A stretch of DNA of 64,000 nt from IMG/VR virus record IMGVR_UViG_3300005546_000001, positions 32,001 through 96,000 of that record. One strand, written 5' to 3'. The DNA comes from a virus. Taxonomy: Duplodnaviria > Caudoviricetes. The notes beneath the pieces were generated by a model. That model saw nothing but the letters and a program-made list of their open reading frames with translations. It was not told the origin of the DNA and ran no database searches. The position numbers and the translations under genes were made by a program. This document shows positions 14,458-20,077 of this stretch, in pieces (position 1 is the stretch's first letter; every line of letters begins with the position of its first letter).

Positions 14458-14486
14458 TTGACAAAAATCAAGGAATCTACTAAAAT
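14458..14486 (+). promoter_or_regulatory. Promoter of the tRNA/ncRNA operon
   Basis: TTGACA, 17 bp, TAAAAT, 9 bp upstream of the first tRNA. Confidence 0.85.
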
Positions 14487-14495
14487 AGCAGAGTT

Positions 14496-14582
14496 GCCAA
14501 CTTCGGGTAGCGGCGATCCCACGAGATTGTAAACCTCGCATTCTTCGGAGTCTCGGTGGTTCGAGTCCACCAGTTGGCACCA
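14496..14582 (+). tRNA. trnY: tRNA-Tyr(GTA), CCA encoded
   Basis: GCCAACT/AGTTGGC acceptor, loop TTGTAAA, long variable arm. Confidence 0.9.
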
Positions 14583-14586
14583 TTTT

Positions 14587-14658
14587 GGCAGAGTTCGTTA
14601 ATTGGTAAGCGGCTGATCTCCAAAATCAGTGCTGAAAGTTCGACCCTTTCCTCTGTCG
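14587..14658 (+). tRNA. trnW: tRNA-Trp(CCA)
   Basis: CTGAT-CTCCAAA-ATCAG, G73. Confidence 0.9.
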
Positions 14659-14729
14659 TAGTAGACCGCTGCAACGCGCCAACCAGAGCGTAGCGACTCG
14701 GCTAGTTACTGAGTCGAATCTGGTAAACT

Positions 14730-14817
14730 GGAAGCGAACCGGCTGGATCAGGGGAGAGTTTGCTAAACTCTTGGGGCGCTAGACGTGCCCTTGTGCGTTC
14801 GAGTCGCACCGTTTCCG
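14730..14817 (+). tRNA. trnS: tRNA-Ser(GCT)
   Basis: Loop TTGCTAA, long variable arm, G73. Confidence 0.9.
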
Positions 14818-14820
14818 CTT

Positions 14821-14903
14821 GGAGAATTTGGCATAGGCACGCCGCACGGTCCTGAAAACCGCAGGGGCTTACACCCCGGTAAGTTCGACTCTTACATTCT
14901 CCG
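14821..14903 (+). tRNA. trnS: tRNA-Ser(TGA), C33
   Basis: Loop CCTGAAA, long variable arm, G73. Confidence 0.85.
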
Positions 14904-14909
14904 CTTTTT

Positions 14910-14982
14910 GGCCCCGTGGTGAAACTGGATATCACAAAACGCTTCGAACGTTTAGTTGAGGAATCGTACTCTTCCGGGGTTA
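14910..14982 (+). tRNA. trnR: tRNA-Arg(TCG)
   Basis: AAACG-CTTCGAA-CGTTT; atypical T loop ATCGTAC. Confidence 0.8.
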
Positions 14983-14993
14983 TTGGAGTAATT

Positions 14994-15164
14994 ATGGAAG
15001 ATACAGATAAAGTGCCCGAATTCAAATTCGGAGTATTCAACTCTATGTTTAGATACGGGCTAGTAAAAAAGTTCTATGAAAAAGAAGCCGCTATTAAATA
15101 TGCGGATTACCTCAGTCACGGCGGACAATATTTCGTTGAACGAGTTGACTGGATAATGCCTTAG
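14994..15164 (+). CDS. Small hypothetical protein within the tRNA array
   Basis: GGAG RBS, ATG at 14994; the longer ORF-track start overlaps a tRNA. Confidence 0.6.
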   Translation: MEDTDKVPEFKFGVFNSMFRYGLVKKFYEKEAAIKYADYLSHGGQYFVERVDWIMP

Positions 15165-15170
15165 TTTTAT

Positions 15171-15255
15171 GCGAGCGTAGACAAATTGGCAAAGTCGGCA
15201 GGCTTAGACCCTGTTTTGCGAAAGCATCCTGGAGGTTCAACTCCTCTCGCTCGTA
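15171..15255 (+). tRNA. trnL: tRNA-Leu(TAG)
   Basis: Loop CTTAGAC, long variable arm, A73. Confidence 0.9.
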
Positions 15256-15259
15256 CCTT

Positions 15260-15332
15260 GCTGGTGTGGTGTAATTGGTAAACGCAGCGGCCTCAAACGT
15301 CGCTTATGGCTGTTCGAATCAGCTCACCAGCA
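15260..15332 (+). tRNA. trnL: tRNA with CAA anticodon (Leu), no variable arm
   Basis: GCGGC-CTCAAAC-GTCGC, variable loop TTAT only. Confidence 0.8.
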
Positions 15333-15406
15333 TTTTCAGTGGATGTGGGGCCTCCTGCATCGGCGCCCTTGCACACCGAGGCGCTTTTAATTTCGGGTGC
15401 TATTTA

Positions 15407-15478
15407 TCGCGCATAGCCAAGGGGAAAGGCGTGAGTCTGCAAAACTCTGATACATCGGTTCGATTCCGATTGCGCGAT
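15407..15478 (+). tRNA. trnC: tRNA-Cys(GCA)
   Basis: Loop CTGCAAA, U73. Confidence 0.9.
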
Positions 15479-15483
15479 CTTAA

Positions 15484-15560
15484 TGCGGGCGATAGCGCCA
15501 TTGTGCTAACTGCGCTCATAACGCAGATAAGGCGGGGTGAGACTCCCCGGCCCGCTACCA
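15484..15560 (+). tRNA. trnM: tRNA-Met(CAT), initiator-like, CCA encoded
   Basis: T1:T72 mismatch, loop CTCATAA, T loop TGAGACT. Confidence 0.8.
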
Positions 15561-15670
15561 TTTGAAACGCCAAGCGGCCACATGAAATTGGTATACCTCA
15601 ATTAAGGAGAACGGGTAAGAATGACCGACGCGCCGCCAGCGCGAGTACTGGCGACCTTGGCGCGGTTTTT

Positions 15671-15744
15671 GCCAGCGTGATGTAATTGGCACGCATTTAC
15701 CGCTTAAAACGGTGATTTTGGGGGTTCGAGTCCCTCCGCTGGCA
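15671..15744 (+). tRNA. trnL: tRNA with TAA anticodon (Leu), no variable arm
   Basis: TACCG-CTTAAAA-CGGTG, variable loop ATTTT. Confidence 0.8.
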
Positions 15745-15828
15745 TTCTTTGGTGCGAAGCTATGCTATGAATATTGCCATAGAGCGCAAACCTCCATTGG
15801 ATGTTAGGCGCTCGCACTGAGGGGACAT

Positions 15829-15900
15829 GGCGTCGAATGCAAATGGCTAGCAGCAAGTCCTTCAAACTTGTACTAGAGAGTTCAATTCTCTCCGGCGCTG
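15829..15900 (+). tRNA. trnE: tRNA-Glu(TTC), C33
   Basis: CAAGT-CCTTCAA-ACTTG, G73. Confidence 0.75.
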
Positions 15901-15977
15901 CTATTCCGCCTGACTATTTCGATGGCAGGCTGCGGGAGTACACTACAGAAGGAATTCTGAAAGAACTCCCTGCTTAT

Positions 15978-16050
15978 GGCGACTGTAGTGTAGTGGAAAC
16001 ATGGAAAGCTGTGAACTTTTCGTCAGTCCGTTCAAATCGGCTCAGTCGCC
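15978..16050 (+). tRNA. trnH: tRNA-His(GTG)
   Basis: G-1:C73, loop CTGTGAA. Confidence 0.9.
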
Positions 16051-16056
16051 CTTTAT

Positions 16057-16130
16057 TCTGGCGTCTTCTAAAGCAAGAACCATCGCTCTGAACGATGAGA
16101 ATCTCGGTTCGATTCCGTGCGCCAGTGCCA
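16057..16130 (+). tRNA. trnQ: tRNA-Gln(CTG), CCA encoded
   Basis: CATCG-CTCTGAA-CGATG. Confidence 0.85.
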
Positions 16131-16144
16131 ACTAATTTAGTTTT

Positions 16145-16217
16145 GCCGATCTAGTGTAATTGGCTGCACGCCCTCCTGATTAGAGGGAAGCTCAGGGTTC
16201 AAGTCCTTGGATCGGTA
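16145..16217 (+). tRNA. trnI: tRNA-Ile(GAT)
   Basis: CCCTC-CTGATTA-GAGGG (T37). Confidence 0.85.
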
Positions 16218-16221
16218 CTTA

Positions 16222-16326
16222 GGGAGTTTATCTCCCGACGAAGAGCCGGGGTCGCTGGTTCAACTCCAGTAAAGGGGACCATTTTATCCCCTGCTAGTTT
16301 AGCGTAAAACACCGGCTATGATTTTT
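16222..16326 (+). ncRNA. YrlA-type Y RNA / circularly permuted tRNA mimic
   Basis: Order is GACGAAG, AGCCGG, T arm, AAAGGGGA-CCA, loop, TCCCCTGC, D arm, CCGGCT. Confidence 0.75.
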
Positions 16327-16397
16327 GGAGGCGTAGTGTAAAGGCCGCACGATTGGCTGTCTACCATTTAGAGCGAGTTCGAATCTCGTCGTCTCCG
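16327..16397 (+). tRNA. trnD: tRNA-Asp(GTC)
   Basis: Loop CTGTCTA, G73. Confidence 0.9.
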
Positions 16398-16400
16398 CCT

Positions 16401-16474
16401 GTTCTCGTAGCCAAATTGGATAAGGTGCCAGTCTTCTAAACTGGAGATTCCGAGTTCGAGTCTCGGCGGGAACA
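16401..16474 (+). tRNA. trnR: tRNA-Arg(TCT)
   Basis: CCAGT-CTTCTAA-ACTGG. Confidence 0.9.
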
Positions 16475-16476
16475 TT

Positions 16477-16800
16477 ATGAAAGTTCTTTTCACTACTATT
16501 TTAGTAGCCGTATCTTTTCTTTGTACCGGCTTTATTGGTGGATTTTCTAGTTATACAGCGACAGCGTACACCCTAAAAGGCCGTACGGCTTTTGGTTGCA
16601 AAGCACACTCTGGAATAATAGCTGCTGATCCGCGCCAGATTAAACTCGGTTCTACAGTTTATATCAGAGCCGGTAAATACTCCGGAGAATATGTCGTGCA
16701 TGACACTGGCGTAAAAGGCCGTAGAATCGACATGTGGCTCCCCAGCCGAGCAGAAGCCTTGCGCTTTGGCAAGAAATCTGTTACACTGAAAATATTATGA
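16477..16800 (+). CDS. 3D-domain (MltA-like) cell-wall hydrolase with signal peptide
   Basis: TATAYT, IAADP..I.LGS, HDTG, RIDMW. Confidence 0.85.
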   Translation: MKVLFTTILVAVSFLCTGFIGGFSSYTATAYTLKGRTAFGCKAHSGIIAADPRQIKLGSTVYIRAGKYSGEYVVHDTGVKGRRIDMWLPSRAEALRFGKKSVTLKIL

Positions 16801-17000
16801 AAACAATTTGGATATTAACAGCGCATTCTGAAAGTGGTGATGATTTTGGCCCATTAGCATTTTCTAAGAAACCAACAGAAGCAAAACTAAAGAAAATTGC
16901 TTTTGATTGGGATGGTGAAGAAACAGAAGATGGTCCTGGTGACTATGGTTCTTATGTTTATTTGGATCTAAGTGAGGTAGAAGTTGATAAAAAAAGTTAA
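16797..17000 (+). CDS. Hypothetical protein
   Basis: ATGA overlap, start MKTIW. Confidence 0.55.
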   Translation: MKTIWILTAHSESGDDFGPLAFSKKPTEAKLKKIAFDWDGEETEDGPGDYGSYVYLDLSEVEVDKKS

Positions 17001-17099
17001 ATTTGTTTATCCAGAAGCATCAGAGAATGTTTCAAACAGCCCGTTCTTTATTTCTATAATGCAAGAAATTGTTAAACGACAGCGCGAATGGGTGACTAG

Positions 17100-17172
17100 G
17101 AACTCGTAGCTCAATTGGCAGAGCATCACTCTCTTAAAGTGAGTTGTGCGGGATCATTGCCCGCCGAGTTCA
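17100..17172 (+). tRNA. trnK: tRNA-Lys(CTT)
   Basis: TCACT-CTCTTAA-AGTGA; T loop ATCATTG. Confidence 0.8.
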
Positions 17173-17177
17173 TTTCT

Positions 17178-17266
17178 GCTCCCTTGGTGTAGTGACAGCA
17201 CGCTTGCTTTATACGCAGGAAGCCCCAGATTAGGGCGTGGCAGAGGTTTAATTCCTCTAGGGAGTA
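17178..17266 (+). tRNA. trnI: tRNA-Ile(TAT) with long variable arm
   Basis: CTTGC-TTTATAC-GCAGG; variable arm GCCC-CAGATTA-GGGC. Confidence 0.8.
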
Positions 17267-17269
17267 CTC

Positions 17270-17342
17270 GGATCGAAGGCTCAATTGGCAGAGTACCGGA
17301 CTTTTAATCCGGGGGTTGTGAGTTCGACTCTCACTCGATCCA
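17270..17342 (+). tRNA. trnK: tRNA-Lys(TTT)
   Basis: CCGGA-CTTTTAA-TCCGG. Confidence 0.9.
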
Positions 17343-17346
17343 CTTT

Positions 17347-17418
17347 GTCGGCGTAATTTAATCGGTAAAATACATCCCCGGTACGGATGTTTCAAGAGTT
17401 CAAATCCCAGTACCGGCT
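17347..17418 (+). tRNA. trnT: tRNA-Thr(GGT), C33, degenerate T stem (possible pseudogene)
   Basis: CATCC-CCGGTAC-GGATG; T stem AAGAG/CCCAG pairs poorly. Confidence 0.6.
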
Positions 17419-17423
17419 TTTAT

Positions 17424-17496
17424 TGGCGTGTCGTTTAATAGGCAAGACGGCAGATTGTTAATCTGTTAAGTGCAGGTTCGAGTCCTGCCGCGCCAG
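17424..17496 (+). tRNA. trnN: tRNA-Asn(GTT)
   Basis: Loop TTGTTAA, G73. Confidence 0.9.
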
Positions 17497-17502
17497 CTTT
17501 AA

Positions 17503-17577
17503 CTGTGTGTAGCCTAGTCTGGTTCAGGCACTTGGTTTGGGGCCAAGGTCACGGGAGTTCAAATCTCTCCACACAGA
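17503..17577 (+). tRNA. trnP: tRNA-Pro(TGG) copy 1
   Basis: C1-G72, A73, loop TTTGGGG. Confidence 0.9.
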
Positions 17578-17582
17578 CTTTA

Positions 17583-17656
17583 CAGGGTGTGGTGTCAATT
17601 GGCTGGCGACCCGGCCTGGAACCGGGAATATGCAGGTTCGAGTCCTGTCACCCTGA
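17583..17656 (+). tRNA. trnP: tRNA-Pro(TGG) copy 2, C33/A37
   Basis: C1-G72, A73, CCCGG-CCTGGAA-CCGGG. Confidence 0.8.
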
Positions 17657-17659
17657 CTT

Positions 17660-18175
17660 ATGAAAACAACAATAGCAACTTTATTTGTCGCATTGTTTCT
17701 TGCTGTTCCAGTGTTTTCACAAAACCGCGAACGGCACATGGATAATCGAGGTGTGTCAGAACACCGCCAAGAGTGGTTACAAGAACGTGCTCGAAATAGA
17801 GAACGAGAATCTCGTGATCGGCCTGTTAGAGTAGTTCCAGTAGTTCCGGTACGTCCAGTTCAACCTCGTATTGAAGATCGCCGTGGCGAGCAGCATCGCG
17901 ATTGGGATCGACGTGAACGCCACGAGCGTCCTTCGGGACCAAGAGTAGTGATCGTACCACGCTTGACATTCAGATTTCCTTTCTTTTACAAGGGAGCAAG
18001 AATCTACAACGCCTACGACTACGGATTTCGTGACGGATTCTACAAGGGACGAGAAGACTTCAGATTCGGATTTCCGTGTGATCCCGAATTCGAATTCGAT
18101 TACAGGCATTCATACGATGATCGTTATCGAGCGGGATTTCTTGCTGGATACGACCGTGGATGCCGTTGGCGCTAG
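17660..18175 (+). CDS. Secreted Arg/Glu-rich protein with GF/GY helical repeats
   Basis: Signal peptide; YGFRDGFYKG...YRAGFLAGYDRG. Confidence 0.65.
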   Translation: MKTTIATLFVALFLAVPVFSQNRERHMDNRGVSEHRQEWLQERARNRERESRDRPVRVVPVVPVRPVQPRIEDRRGEQHRDWDRRERHERPSGPRVVIVPRLTFRFPFFYKGARIYNAYDYGFRDGFYKGREDFRFGFPCDPEFEFDYRHSYDDRYRAGFLAGYDRGCRWR

Positions 18176-18184
18176 GAGATTTTT

Positions 18185-18331
18185 ATGCTTTGGACGATTT
18201 TGATCGTGCTTTTAGTTCTATGGTTACTCGGTTTGATCGGTGGAGTCGGGGGTGGTTTAATCCACCTCCTGCTCGTTGTCGCGCTGATCGTTCTTTTAAT
18301 CCAGTTGATTACTGGCCGAAGAGTAGTTTAA
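18185..18331 (+). CDS. lmo0937-family small membrane protein (48 aa, not in ORF track)
   Basis: MLWTILIVLLVLWLLGLIGGVGGGLIHLLLVVALIVLLIQLITGRRVV; GGAG RBS. Confidence 0.8.
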   Translation: MLWTILIVLLVLWLLGLIGGVGGGLIHLLLVVALIVLLIQLITGRRVV

Positions 18332-18338
18332 ATTTTTA

Positions 18339-18415
18339 GGGCTCATAGCTTCAATTGGTAAAGCGACTGGCCTGCAACCAGTAGACTCTCGGTTCGAATC
18401 CGAGTGGGTCCACCA
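18339..18415 (+). tRNA. trnA: tRNA-Ala(TGC), C33, CCA encoded
   Basis: G3-T70, ACTGG-CCTGCAA-CCAGT. Confidence 0.9.
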
Positions 18416-18420
18416 TTTTT

Positions 18421-18493
18421 GCGGATATAATTCAAGAGGATAGAATCCAAGTTTCCTAAACTTGCTATCCGGGTCCGAGTCCCGGTATCCGCT
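18421..18493 (+). tRNA. trnR: tRNA-Arg(CCT)
   Basis: CAAGT-TTCCTAA-ACTTG. Confidence 0.85.
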
Positions 18494-18496
18494 TTT

Positions 18497-18571
18497 GTAC
18501 GCATAGCTGAGATGGATTAGCGGCAGTCTGAAGAACTGCAAAGGCCCGTTCGATTCGTGCTGCGTACACCA
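18497..18571 (+). tRNA. trnF: tRNA-Phe(GAA), CCA encoded
   Basis: GCAGT-CTGAAGA-ACTGC. Confidence 0.9.
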
Positions 18572-18591
18572 CATCATATAAAGGAAAACAA

Positions 18592-18834
18592 ATGCATTAC
18601 CGAAATGGTCGTGAAGCTCATAACGGAGACAAGGTAGTAAAATTAGAAGGTGGGAAGATTGTTAGTTTCGGAGTGCTGCACAGCGCCACTCCCGGCAACG
18701 ATTACTGCAATGGATATATAGCTGTAGTACAGTCCCCAACCGACTACGCTTGTATGGTAGACTGTCTCCATGTAGATGACGTAGCTGAGTTGCTAGCAGA
18801 AAAAGGGTTAGCAACCCGACCGGCTGGTAAGTAA
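18592..18834 (+). CDS. Hypothetical phage protein
   Basis: AAGGA RBS; MHYRNGREA...CLHVDD. Confidence 0.65.
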   Translation: MHYRNGREAHNGDKVVKLEGGKIVSFGVLHSATPGNDYCNGYIAVVQSPTDYACMVDCLHVDDVAELLAEKGLATRPAGK

Positions 18835-18837
18835 TTT

Positions 18838-18908
18838 TGCTCGGAAACCAAATGGATCGGTGATAGTCTTTGAAACTATTTTAGTTGGTTCGATTCCAAC
18901 CCGAGCGG
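18838..18908 (+). tRNA. trnQ: tRNA-Gln(TTG)
   Basis: ATAGT-CTTTGAA-ACTAT. Confidence 0.85.
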
Positions 18909-18912
18909 CTTT

Positions 18913-18985
18913 GTCGCGCTGATATAACTGGTTATTATTCCGGTCCTGTAAATCGGCCATCGGGGTTCGACTCCCCGGCGCGGCT
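18913..18985 (+). tRNA. trnT: tRNA-Thr(TGT), C33
   Basis: CCGGT-CCTGTAA-ATCGG, T73, short variable loop. Confidence 0.8.
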
Positions 18986-19001
18986 CTTAGGATTAAATTT
19001 T

Positions 19002-19145
19002 ATGCCATATAAAGTAAAAACCCCATCTGGTGTTTTAGCAGATGGAGAATGGGAACGAATCGAAGATATTCCAGAAAAAATACCAGATCGATTTGAATAC
19101 TACTTTGAAACTGCTGAAGCAGAAATTATATGGGTTGACGACTAA
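19002..19145 (+). CDS. Small acidic hypothetical protein
   Basis: AGGA upstream, start MPYKV. Confidence 0.5.
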   Translation: MPYKVKTPSGVLADGEWERIEDIPEKIPDRFEYYFETAEAEIIWVDD

Positions 19146-19152
19146 TTTAGTT

Positions 19153-19190
19153 GCCGTATTGATGTAGCTGGAAACACGGGAGTCTTCCAA
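19153..19190 (+). pseudogene. 5' half of tRNA-Gly(TCC)
   Basis: GCCGTAT-TG-D arm-GGAGT-CTTCCAA, then an abrupt A-rich break; no matching 3' half nearby. Confidence 0.7.
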
Positions 19191-19198
19191 AAATAAAA

Positions 19199-19687
19199 AT
19201 GTATAAACAAAGATTTTGTAATGATTGTGGCTCTAAAAGAGATAAAAGAAGCAAAAGCGAACTTTGCTTAATATGCTTTAGAGAAAAAGTTAAACGCGAG
19301 GCTAATAAATATCAACCCGGATTTATTTAAGGTGGAAGTCAGTGGGCAGATAAGGATGGTTTAACTCATTATCAAAAAAATAAATCTCAATATTCTGCAT
19401 TAGCTATGCTCTCGAAGAAGAGAAGAAAGATTATTCTCTATAGTATTATAAATGAATACAAAGCTGAACGAGGGTGCAAGGATTGTGGCAATAAATTTCC
19501 AGAATATCCACAAGTTTTAGATTTTGATCATTTAGATTCAAATAATAAAAAGGCAGCAATTTCATCAATGCTACAGTTTGGGAATTCTTTGCAGTTAATA
19601 ATAGACGAGATTGCTAAATGTGAGTTAGTTTGTGCAAATTGTCATAGAATAAGAACTTTTAAAAGAAGACATAAAATTAGTATTTAA
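19199..19687 (+). pseudogene. HNH homing endonuclease with in-frame TAA at codon 44
   Basis: ATG 19199, CxxC..CxxC, TAA 19328-30; the frame continues into ORF 19406 (CKDC, LDFDH, CANCH). Confidence 0.7.
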
Positions 19688-19689
19688 TT

Positions 19690-19762
19690 GTGAAAGTAGC
19701 TCAATTGGCAGAGCGCCAGTCTTCCAAACTGGATGTTGCGAGATCGTTGCTCGTCTTTCACA
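19690..19762 (+). tRNA. trnG: tRNA-Gly(TCC)
   Basis: CCAGT-CTTCCAA-ACTGG; T loop ATCGTTG; A73. Confidence 0.8.
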
Positions 19763-19766
19763 TTTC

Positions 19767-19838
19767 GCCAGATTCGACAAGCGGAAAGTCACTACGTTTA
19801 CACCGTAGCATGCGTGGGTCCGAATCCTACATCTGGCA
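19767..19838 (+). tRNA. trnV: tRNA-Val(TAC)
   Basis: CTACG-TTTACAC-CGTAG. Confidence 0.85.
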
Positions 19839-19839
19839 T

Positions 19840-19996
19840 TCTGTGCGGTATATCGAAAGTAGCCCCCGCTTTGTCTGGTAAGGTTGCAAACGAACCAGCG
19901 AAGTACTTGGCAATCGGCGCCTGAAGCAGAAGCATGGAATGCTGGCCAGCAAGAAATGCGGAGCAGGAGATTGGCGCAAATTCGGGATAGCACAGA
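19840..19996 (+). ncRNA. Structured RNA containing a tmRNA-tag-like reading frame
   Basis: Ends pair (TCTGTGC/GCACAGA); 19886-19924 reads ANEPAKYLAIGA*. Confidence 0.45.
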
Positions 19997-19999
19997 TTC

Positions 20000-20077
20000 G
20001 CTGGTGTAGTGTATAAAAATAGGATAACACAGCCTTCCCGTAAAGGGCAAATGGCGGTTCGAGTCCGCTCATCAGCT
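20000..20077 (+). tRNA. trnT: tRNA-Thr(CGT), C33, enlarged D loop
   Basis: GCCTT-CCCGTAA-AGGGC, T73. Confidence 0.8.

Follow-up and report, generated by a model that had tools for sequence, protein, structure and literature searches.

A circularly permuted tRNA-Phe-like element in the tRNA array of a phage

Permuted tRNA genes that mature into tRNAs have, to our knowledge, been described in a few algae only, and we know of tRNA-shaped Y RNAs only beside Ro60 genes. tRNA pseudogenes and fragments occur in phage tRNA arrays, where the ordinary fragments are truncated. Tandem duplication is usually proposed as the source of the permuted tRNA genes found in Cyanidioschyzon merolae. In the nuclear permuted genes of this and other algae the 5′ half is preceded by the 3′ half (Soma et al. 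2007, reviewed in PMC4090602). Their leader and trailer form a bulge-helix-bulge, and maturation into working tRNAs proceeds via a circular RNA (PMC4090602). The family of Y RNA-like A RNAs (YrlA; Rfam RF02553) has been described by Chen et al. (2014, PMC4201824) and Wang et al. (2018, bioRxiv 10.1101/312249). Nearly all YrlAs are found within 4 kb of a Ro60 gene, location on the same strand being a criterion, and Ro60 chiefly contacts their 5′ strand (PMC4201824). The YrlA of M. smegmatis undergoes RNase P cleavage within its sealed acceptor loop and has a CCA end in vivo (PMC4201824). The YrlA consensus of Rfam places the motif GNCGAAN0-1G at model positions 3-10, within a terminal helix paired to the 3′ end, and this motif is set off from the tRNA-like head by 11 bp of stem, in two steps of 7 and 4 bp. 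In two-piece tmRNA genes (RF04321, RF01850) the T arm, the 3′ strand of the acceptor and CCA are encoded ahead of the acceptor 5′ strand, and cutting of the precursor yields two pieces, which remain paired.

The locus that we compare with these systems lies in a stretch of 64,000 nt (the window), which corresponds to bases 32001-96000 of a complete phage record of 130,977 bp with direct terminal repeats (IMG/VR). It occupies a 108-nt gap between tRNA-Ile(GAU) and tRNA-Asp(GUC) in a plus-strand tRNA array (14496-20077) of about 31 genes. Positions 16238-16317 of this gap contain all the parts of a tRNA in circularly permuted order, each tRNA position once, with neither gap nor overlap (Table 1). 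The 3′ half (nt 32/33-76, including CCA) comes first and is followed by a spacer and then by the 5′ half (nt 1-32), so that the permutation break is the 5′ edge of the anticodon loop. All the sequence blocks listed in a preliminary description of this DNA were recovered at the same coordinates, including AGCCGG (16244-49), AAAGGGGA-CCA (16271-81), TCCCCTGC (16287-94) and CCGGCT (16312-17), and the permuted order of the halves and the encoded ACCA reported there are confirmed. Twenty of the 22 stem pairs are intact. The acceptor pairs at five of its seven positions, with mismatches G6.A67 and C7.A66, and position 33 is a C. The tertiary nucleotides U8, A14, G15:C48, A21, G53:C61, U54:A58, U55 and C56 are retained and G18G19 is missing. 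A reading of the leader as a decayed tRNA 5′ half was rejected on inspection, the 6-mer AGUUUA alone being in common.

Table 1. Features of the permuted element, its neighbours and the promoter-like site of the array (positions in the window; tRNA numbering as nt).
Feature	Position	Strand	Remark
Sigma-70-like promoter TTGACA-17-TAAAAT (11/12)	14458-14486	+	Directly upstream of the first tRNA of the array
tRNA-Ile(GAU)	16145-16218	+	Upstream neighbour
5′ leader hairpin GGGAG-UUUAU-CUCCC	16222-16236	+	Pair probability 1.0
GACGAAG	16237-16243	+	Fits the YrlA motif GNCGAAN0-1G
Anticodon-loop-like heptamer A32-C33-G34-A35-A36-G37-A38	16238-16244	+	Anticodon GAA at 16240-42; overlaps GACGAAG
Anticodon-stem 3′ strand GCCGG (nt 39-43)	16245-16249	+	
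Variable loop GGUC	16250-16253	+	4 nt, with C48
T arm GCTGG-TTCAACT-CCAGT	16254-16270	+	5-bp stem; canonical loop UUCAACU (U54, U55, C56, A58; G53-C61)
Acceptor 3′ strand AAAGGGG (nt 66-72)	16271-16277	+	Discriminator A73 at 16278, encoded CCA at 16279-81
Linker UUUUAU	16282-16287	+	Resembles the ordinary U-rich inter-tRNA spacer of the array
Acceptor 5′ strand CCCCUGC (nt 1-7), then U8 A9	16288-16296	+	
D-arm region GUUU-AGCGUA-AAAC and A26	16297-16311 (A26 at 16311)	+	Weak stem; 6-nt loop without G18G19
Anticodon-stem 5′ strand CCGGC (nt 27-31) and U32	16312-16317	+	Pairs with 16244-16249
Trailer AUGAUUUUU	16318-16326	+	Also the 5′ leader of tRNA-Asp; unpaired
tRNA-Asp(GUC)	16327-16399	+	Downstream neighbour

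The minimum free energy structure of the element calculated with RNAfold (-37.6 kcal/mol, z -2.46) was equalled by one of 200 shuffled sequences. In it, the 5′ hairpin (16222-36) is followed by an unpaired GACGAAG and then by a four-way junction. The closing stem AGCCGG/CCGGCU has pair probabilities of at least 0.93, the sealed acceptor of 0.82-1.0 and the T arm of about 0.7. The D arm GUUU/AAAC proposed in the preliminary description is disfavoured, its pair probability being 0.01 compared with 0.7 for an alternative hairpin, GCUA-GUU-UAGC (16293-16303), which replaces it. No pairing between leader and trailer is seen in the minimum free energy fold or in the ensemble, the leader folding on itself.

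ARAGORN found neither a tRNA nor a tmRNA in the native, linear order of the element, and called a tRNA when the element was circularised, duplicated in tandem or re-joined. Joining 16317 to 16239 yields a 73-nt tRNA-Phe(GAA) starting at C16288, with the anticodon GAA, A73 and CCA in register. The Rfam tRNA model RF00005 made no call on the native order, which lacks a collinear cloverleaf with a 7-bp acceptor. Rfam searches at permissive thresholds, run on this stretch, on the array and on the complete genome, produced no YrlA, tRNA or tmRNA call for the element. As a chance control, 702 chimeras were assembled, each joining the 3′ half of one of 27 real array tRNAs to the 5′ half of a different one. 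Pairing at the level of the element (an acceptor with at least 5/7 pairs and an anticodon stem with 5/5) was reached by just three of them. This indicates that the two halves of the element come from one tRNA or have been kept complementary. By comparison with the 5/7 pairs of the element, the acceptor is paired at 7/7 positions in 26 of the 27 real array tRNAs. The permuted feature is real and unusual.

The surrounding array serves all 20 amino acids and includes an intact tRNA-Phe. ARAGORN identifies 27 of its members, Rfam adds tRNA-Thr(GGU) (17347-17418) and tRNA-Thr(CGU) (20000-20077), and inspection adds tRNA-Glu(UUC) and an atypical tRNA of the Met(CAU) type. Spacers between the tRNAs are mostly 0-5 nt long and T-rich. 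CCA is encoded in five of the 31 tRNAs (Tyr, Ala, Phe, Gln-CUG and the Met-like one), and a T run follows directly in three of these five.

The heptamer GACGAAG can alternatively be read as positions 31-37 of a Phe-type anticodon loop. The pentamer GAAGA is common to the loop of the element, to the phage's own tRNA-Phe (CU-GAA-GA) and to the tRNA-Phe of Vibrio phage Pontus (UU-GAA-GA), and the 19-mer GTCGCTGGTTCAACTCCAG, which covers the variable loop and the T arm, is identical in the Pontus tRNA-Phe. A Phe-type loop would need just C33 and one G to yield GNCGAAG, and C33 is present in several tRNAs of the array. The Phe anticodon-loop reading of GACGAAG is as good as its reading as a Ro60 motif. 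The simplest description of the element is a complete, circularly permuted gene of the tRNA-Phe(GAA) type. The preliminary description had rated a permuted tRNA-Phe less likely than a Y RNA; it is in fact the better description of the anatomy, although maturation into a working tRNA is unlikely (see below).

A recent duplication of one of the array tRNAs was considered as a source and rejected, the identity of the element to every array tRNA being about 0.6, which is the general tRNA background; none of the array tRNAs is a parent-like copy. The succession of A73-CCA and UUUUAU is like an ordinary inter-tRNA junction and therefore suggests an origin from two tandem copies with a shift of phase. 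Thus a tandemly duplicated tRNA gene read in shifted phase is the most likely origin of the element, which recalls the C. merolae genes. As in these genes, the 3′ half is upstream, the break is in or beside the anticodon loop, the linker between the acceptor ends would be removable by normal end-processing enzymes and tandem duplication is the presumed origin. In contrast to them, the element shows no bulge-helix-bulge, no endonuclease or ligase is in view, and its cloverleaf is imperfect.

The preliminary description had interpreted the element as a Y RNA of the YrlA type, and this interpretation is partly supported. The motif it had named, GNCGAAN0-1G, is indeed present. As in YrlA, a CGAAG-type motif lies 5′ of a tRNA-like head in which a V loop, a T arm, a loop-closed acceptor and a D arm follow each other and which is closed at the position of the anticodon stem. 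The T arm fits the YrlA T stem-loop, and the D arm is weak. Its sequence, GUUU-AGCGUA-AAAC, has no GG and does not match the nearly invariant D stem-loop of YrlA (GCUC-A..GGUA-GAGC), and the YUAY that begins the V loop of YrlA is absent from the GGUC of the element. Unlike in YrlA, the motif directly adjoins the 6-bp stem of the head, and there is no outer terminal helix between the 5′ and 3′ ends. The element also differs in its fully encoded CCA and in its location in a tRNA operon without a neighbouring Ro60 gene.

Membership of the YrlA family was not borne out by the covariance model. When RF02553, whose gathering threshold is 69 bits, was run against the stretch 16200-16345, no match was obtained at E<=10, and in the scan of the whole genome the element was absent among the matches listed, the lowest of which scored 9.8 bits. 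The element thus stays below scores that ordinary tRNA-tRNA junctions of this phage reach, three of them scoring 11.7, 15.3 and 20.1 bits. These junctions, at 17471-17529, 17297-17396 and 16373-16426, each run from the 3′ half of one tRNA through a spacer into the 5′ half of its neighbour. A junction of two normal tRNAs in Proteus phage J3S (L001 2499-2564) scores 22 bits. Since such junctions score 11.7-22 bits, sub-threshold YrlA matches are to be expected in tRNA arrays by construction. The motif carries little weight as evidence: GNCGAAG occurs 29 times in the window, compared with 24 +/- 5 expected, and is not enriched; from its frequency in the window, the probability of a chance match in the leader is about 0.002-0.009. 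Searches of the complete phage of 130,977 bp returned no match for TROVE/Ro60 (PF05731), for which control genomes were positive, and none for RtcB, an Rnl2-type ligase or a CCA-adding enzyme; the Rnl1 search was empty, as were its own control genomes, and so carries no information. The earlier observation that the window contains neither Ro60/TROVE nor RtcB therefore holds for the whole phage. By analogy, the element may resemble the head of a YrlA in its mode of action while standing outside the family.

Homologues were sought at several levels. In a blastn search of 50,697 phage records, the element gave matches at the level of the T arm alone. The best of them, in Proteus phage J3S, was rejected as a homologue, being the junction of two normal tRNAs with no permuted element. 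No exact 25-mer of the element was found in IMG/VR (0 matches). The pattern GACGAAG-N11-15-GGTTCRANTCC had 98 matches in IMG/VR, and no permuted element was seen among the 80 examined, which proved to be coding sequence, tmRNA 3′ ends or ordinary tRNAs. A covariance model built from the single sequence of the element (R1) detected nothing but the element itself in its own genome, and nothing in one IMG/VR relative, whose capsid is 51% identical and which has one tRNA. When the proteins encoded nearby, one with a 3D domain and one RNase H-like, were used singly as queries against IMG/VR, no relatives came up, nor did any in the P0003 scan of genome contigs. A search with an alignment of RNase H-like homologues led to 11 loci of unrelated phages of 46-69 kb with at most one tRNA gene each and no array. 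A search with a capsid alignment led to the one IMG/VR relative (51% identity) and four metagenome contigs, and the closest capsid relatives have 84, 82 and 77% identity (P0122, P0123 and P0126). As a separate observation, three IMG/VR phage contigs (L038, L044 and L064) carry a conserved minihelix-like element about 50 nt upstream of tRNA-His. Its acceptor-type stem AUCAACG/CGUUGAU encloses a canonical T arm together with GACGAAG, and neither a D arm nor an anticodon arm is present.

The reading that we put forward, tentatively and with a probability of about 0.45, is that of a permuted, tRNA-Phe-derived tRNA look-alike which is processed, does not decode and is of some use. Because the element is inside the tRNA operon of the phage, it would be transcribed together with the array. 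The promoter-like site upstream of the first tRNA is the likely start of this transcript, as judged from its sequence; no promoter-like or terminator-like site was found on the plus strand at the element itself. The 5′ end of the element would be set by 3′ processing of tRNA-Ile, and its 3′ end by the cut that RNase P makes at the start of tRNA-Asp. These two cleavages in the neighbours would free an RNA of about 108 nt. A further cut by RNase P would be possible at 16287/16288, and is plausible because of the U at position -1, the U-rich leader, the T arm stacked on the acceptor and the presence of the 3′ ACCA. The cleavage of M. smegmatis YrlA in its closed acceptor loop is an experimental precedent for it (PMC4201824). 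After this internal cut, 3′ trimming to CCA would leave two pieces, one of 63 nt with a CCA end and one of 39 nt, and the two would remain paired (predicted energies of -37.6 kcal/mol together and -25.7 kcal/mol apart). The product, whether sealed or in two pieces, would have the shape of a tRNA with an open anticodon loop and would therefore be unable to decode. If put to use, it would imitate the tRNA body, or serve as a decoy for it, towards a tRNA-binding factor of the host or the phage. Use is favoured by the exact permutation, the stable leader hairpin, the retention of the element in a compact array and the absence of a parent copy; against it stands the "seal", which is a mere spacer with no designed tetraloop.

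A narrower form of this proposal appears unlikely to us. Here the phage would make a two-piece, CCA-ended look-alike of tRNA-Phe from its own operon with the help of host RNase P, and this RNA, born nicked, would act as a decoy or sponge for factors that handle damaged tRNA. Anticodon nucleases, repair sensors of the RtcR/RtcB type or Ro60/Rsr-PNPase could be its targets, the phage having no Ro60 of its own. Such a nicked decoy would be a free-standing, handle-less Y-RNA head. Two-piece tmRNA genes share with the element the upstream position of the T arm, acceptor 3′ strand and CCA, and the predicted cutting of a precursor into two pieces that stay paired. Unlike them, the element has C-G in place of G3-U70 and lacks both a tag reading frame and pseudoknots, just 39 nt precede tRNA-Asp, and neither ARAGORN nor Rfam calls a tmRNA.

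An inert relic is almost as likely as a processed look-alike. A tandem duplicate of a tRNA-Phe-type gene would have lost nt 1-31 of copy 1 and nt 33-76 of copy 2, or an excised monomer circle would have been re-inserted; what is left would be a non-functional permuted pseudogene, merely co-transcribed and degraded. The element is a singleton with no homologue in the searches made, and it is redundant beside an intact tRNA-Phe, which argues for this history. So do the acceptor with 5/7 pairs compared with 7/7 in nearly all real tRNAs, the degenerate D loop and disfavoured D stem, and the C at position 33. Moreover, the ACCA-UUUUAU is indistinguishable from an ordinary inter-tRNA junction, and other tRNA-free stretches of about 70 nt occur, and are tolerated, elsewhere in the array. 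Mismatched acceptor, D loop, C33, redundancy, spacer seal and singleton status would all fit a decaying by-product as well. However, the permutation is exact, with both breaks at the same place, which would be rare as the outcome of two independent deletions. The 20 intact stem pairs and most of the tertiary nucleotides have been preserved, yet no parent-like copy exists (identity about 0.6), and the leader has a stable 5′ hairpin and GACGAAG. As with tRNA pseudogenes of phage arrays, the element is redundant and imperfect and stands among working tRNA genes; it differs from the ordinary fragments in being a complete and exact circular permutation in which both long-range stems are preserved.

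A true YrlA-type Y RNA, in which host Ro60/Rsr would bind at GACGAAG and the head would serve to recruit PNPase or a different effector, is improbable, more so than the nicked decoy. The order of motif, stem, V loop, T arm, acceptor stem, D arm and stem is that of YrlA, the low frequency of chance motif matches lends it some weight, and so does the fact that Ro60 contacts mostly the 5′ strand (PMC4201824). Nevertheless, the model score falls below that of three plain tRNA junctions, the terminal helix, the YrlA D stem-loop and YUAY are missing, there is no TROVE gene in the complete phage, and the motif is equally well explained by a Phe anticodon loop with C33. Motif and topology are insufficient to call a Y RNA in a tRNA array, because junctions score 11-22 bits there and a Phe loop with C33 mimics the motif. 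Least probable is a working permuted tRNA-Phe, from which leader and trailer would be removed and in which U32 and C33 would be joined via a circular intermediate, as in C. merolae. All 76 positions are present, with the 3′ half first and with GAA, A73 and CCA in register, as the ARAGORN call on the re-joined halves attests. Yet leader and trailer form no bulge-helix-bulge site (PMC4090602 for this feature). The phage has no RNA ligase of the RtcB or Rnl2 type that could close the anticodon loop, and no CCA-adding enzyme. We know of no tRNA splicing endonuclease in bacteria, and its lack argues against such a maturation, as do the acceptor with 5/7 pairs, the missing G18G19 and the intact tRNA-Phe already present in the array.

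What would be new here is a solitary but complete permuted tRNA within the tRNA operon of a phage, with an encoded CCA and all the marks of an RNase P substrate. If the processed look-alike is functional, a tRNA-like head could have a job of its own in the conflicts between phage and host over tRNA. If the element is a relic, it could capture a stage in the emergence of such heads, and of permuted tRNA genes in general, from tandem duplications of tRNAs.

Three further families of observations concern the rest of the genome. On the minus strand of L002 (1475-3460; G000:C1 ~119975-121960) there are three repeats of about 60 nt with the in-stem motif GCAUAGRAGGUUCCUAAC, which sit directly upstream of a gene for a 582-aa protein. 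This protein has no Pfam family or TROVE label, and its nearest atlas clusters are unnamed viral proteins. A link between these repeats, or the 582-aa protein, and the permuted element was rejected, because the handle shared by the repeats, GCAUAG-stem-UCCUAA, is absent from the element. The repeats show no sequence relationship to the element.

Several tRNAs of the array are themselves unusual. C33 is found in tRNA-Glu(UUC) (15838-15910, loop CC-TTC-AA), in tRNA-Thr(GGU) (loop CC-GGT-AC) and in tRNA-Thr(CGU) (loop CC-CGT-AA), none of which is called by ARAGORN; a separate earlier note on the loss of U33 agrees with C33 in these three. The Met(CAU)-type tRNA-like gene (15485-15560) encodes ACCA and has a non-canonical T loop (UGAGACU). 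It is missed by ARAGORN and unmatched by the Rfam tRNA model, and its top Rfam match is Tymo_tRNA-like, at 30.1 bits, which is under the threshold of that family. The Ile(UAU) gene called by ARAGORN at 17178-17267 is, with 90 nt, unusually long for its isotype and scores 50.4 bits with the Rfam tRNA model.

Finally, two features lie between the tRNA genes. A hairpin followed by a T run, resembling an intrinsic terminator, is found at 15367-15389 inside a 73-nt tRNA-free gap, and could split the array into two transcription units. A protein of 107 aa with a 3D domain (PF06725, E 5e-10) is encoded at 16477-16800, beginning 1-2 nt past tRNA-Arg(UCU) within the array, and its mRNA may use the array tRNAs as processing punctuation.
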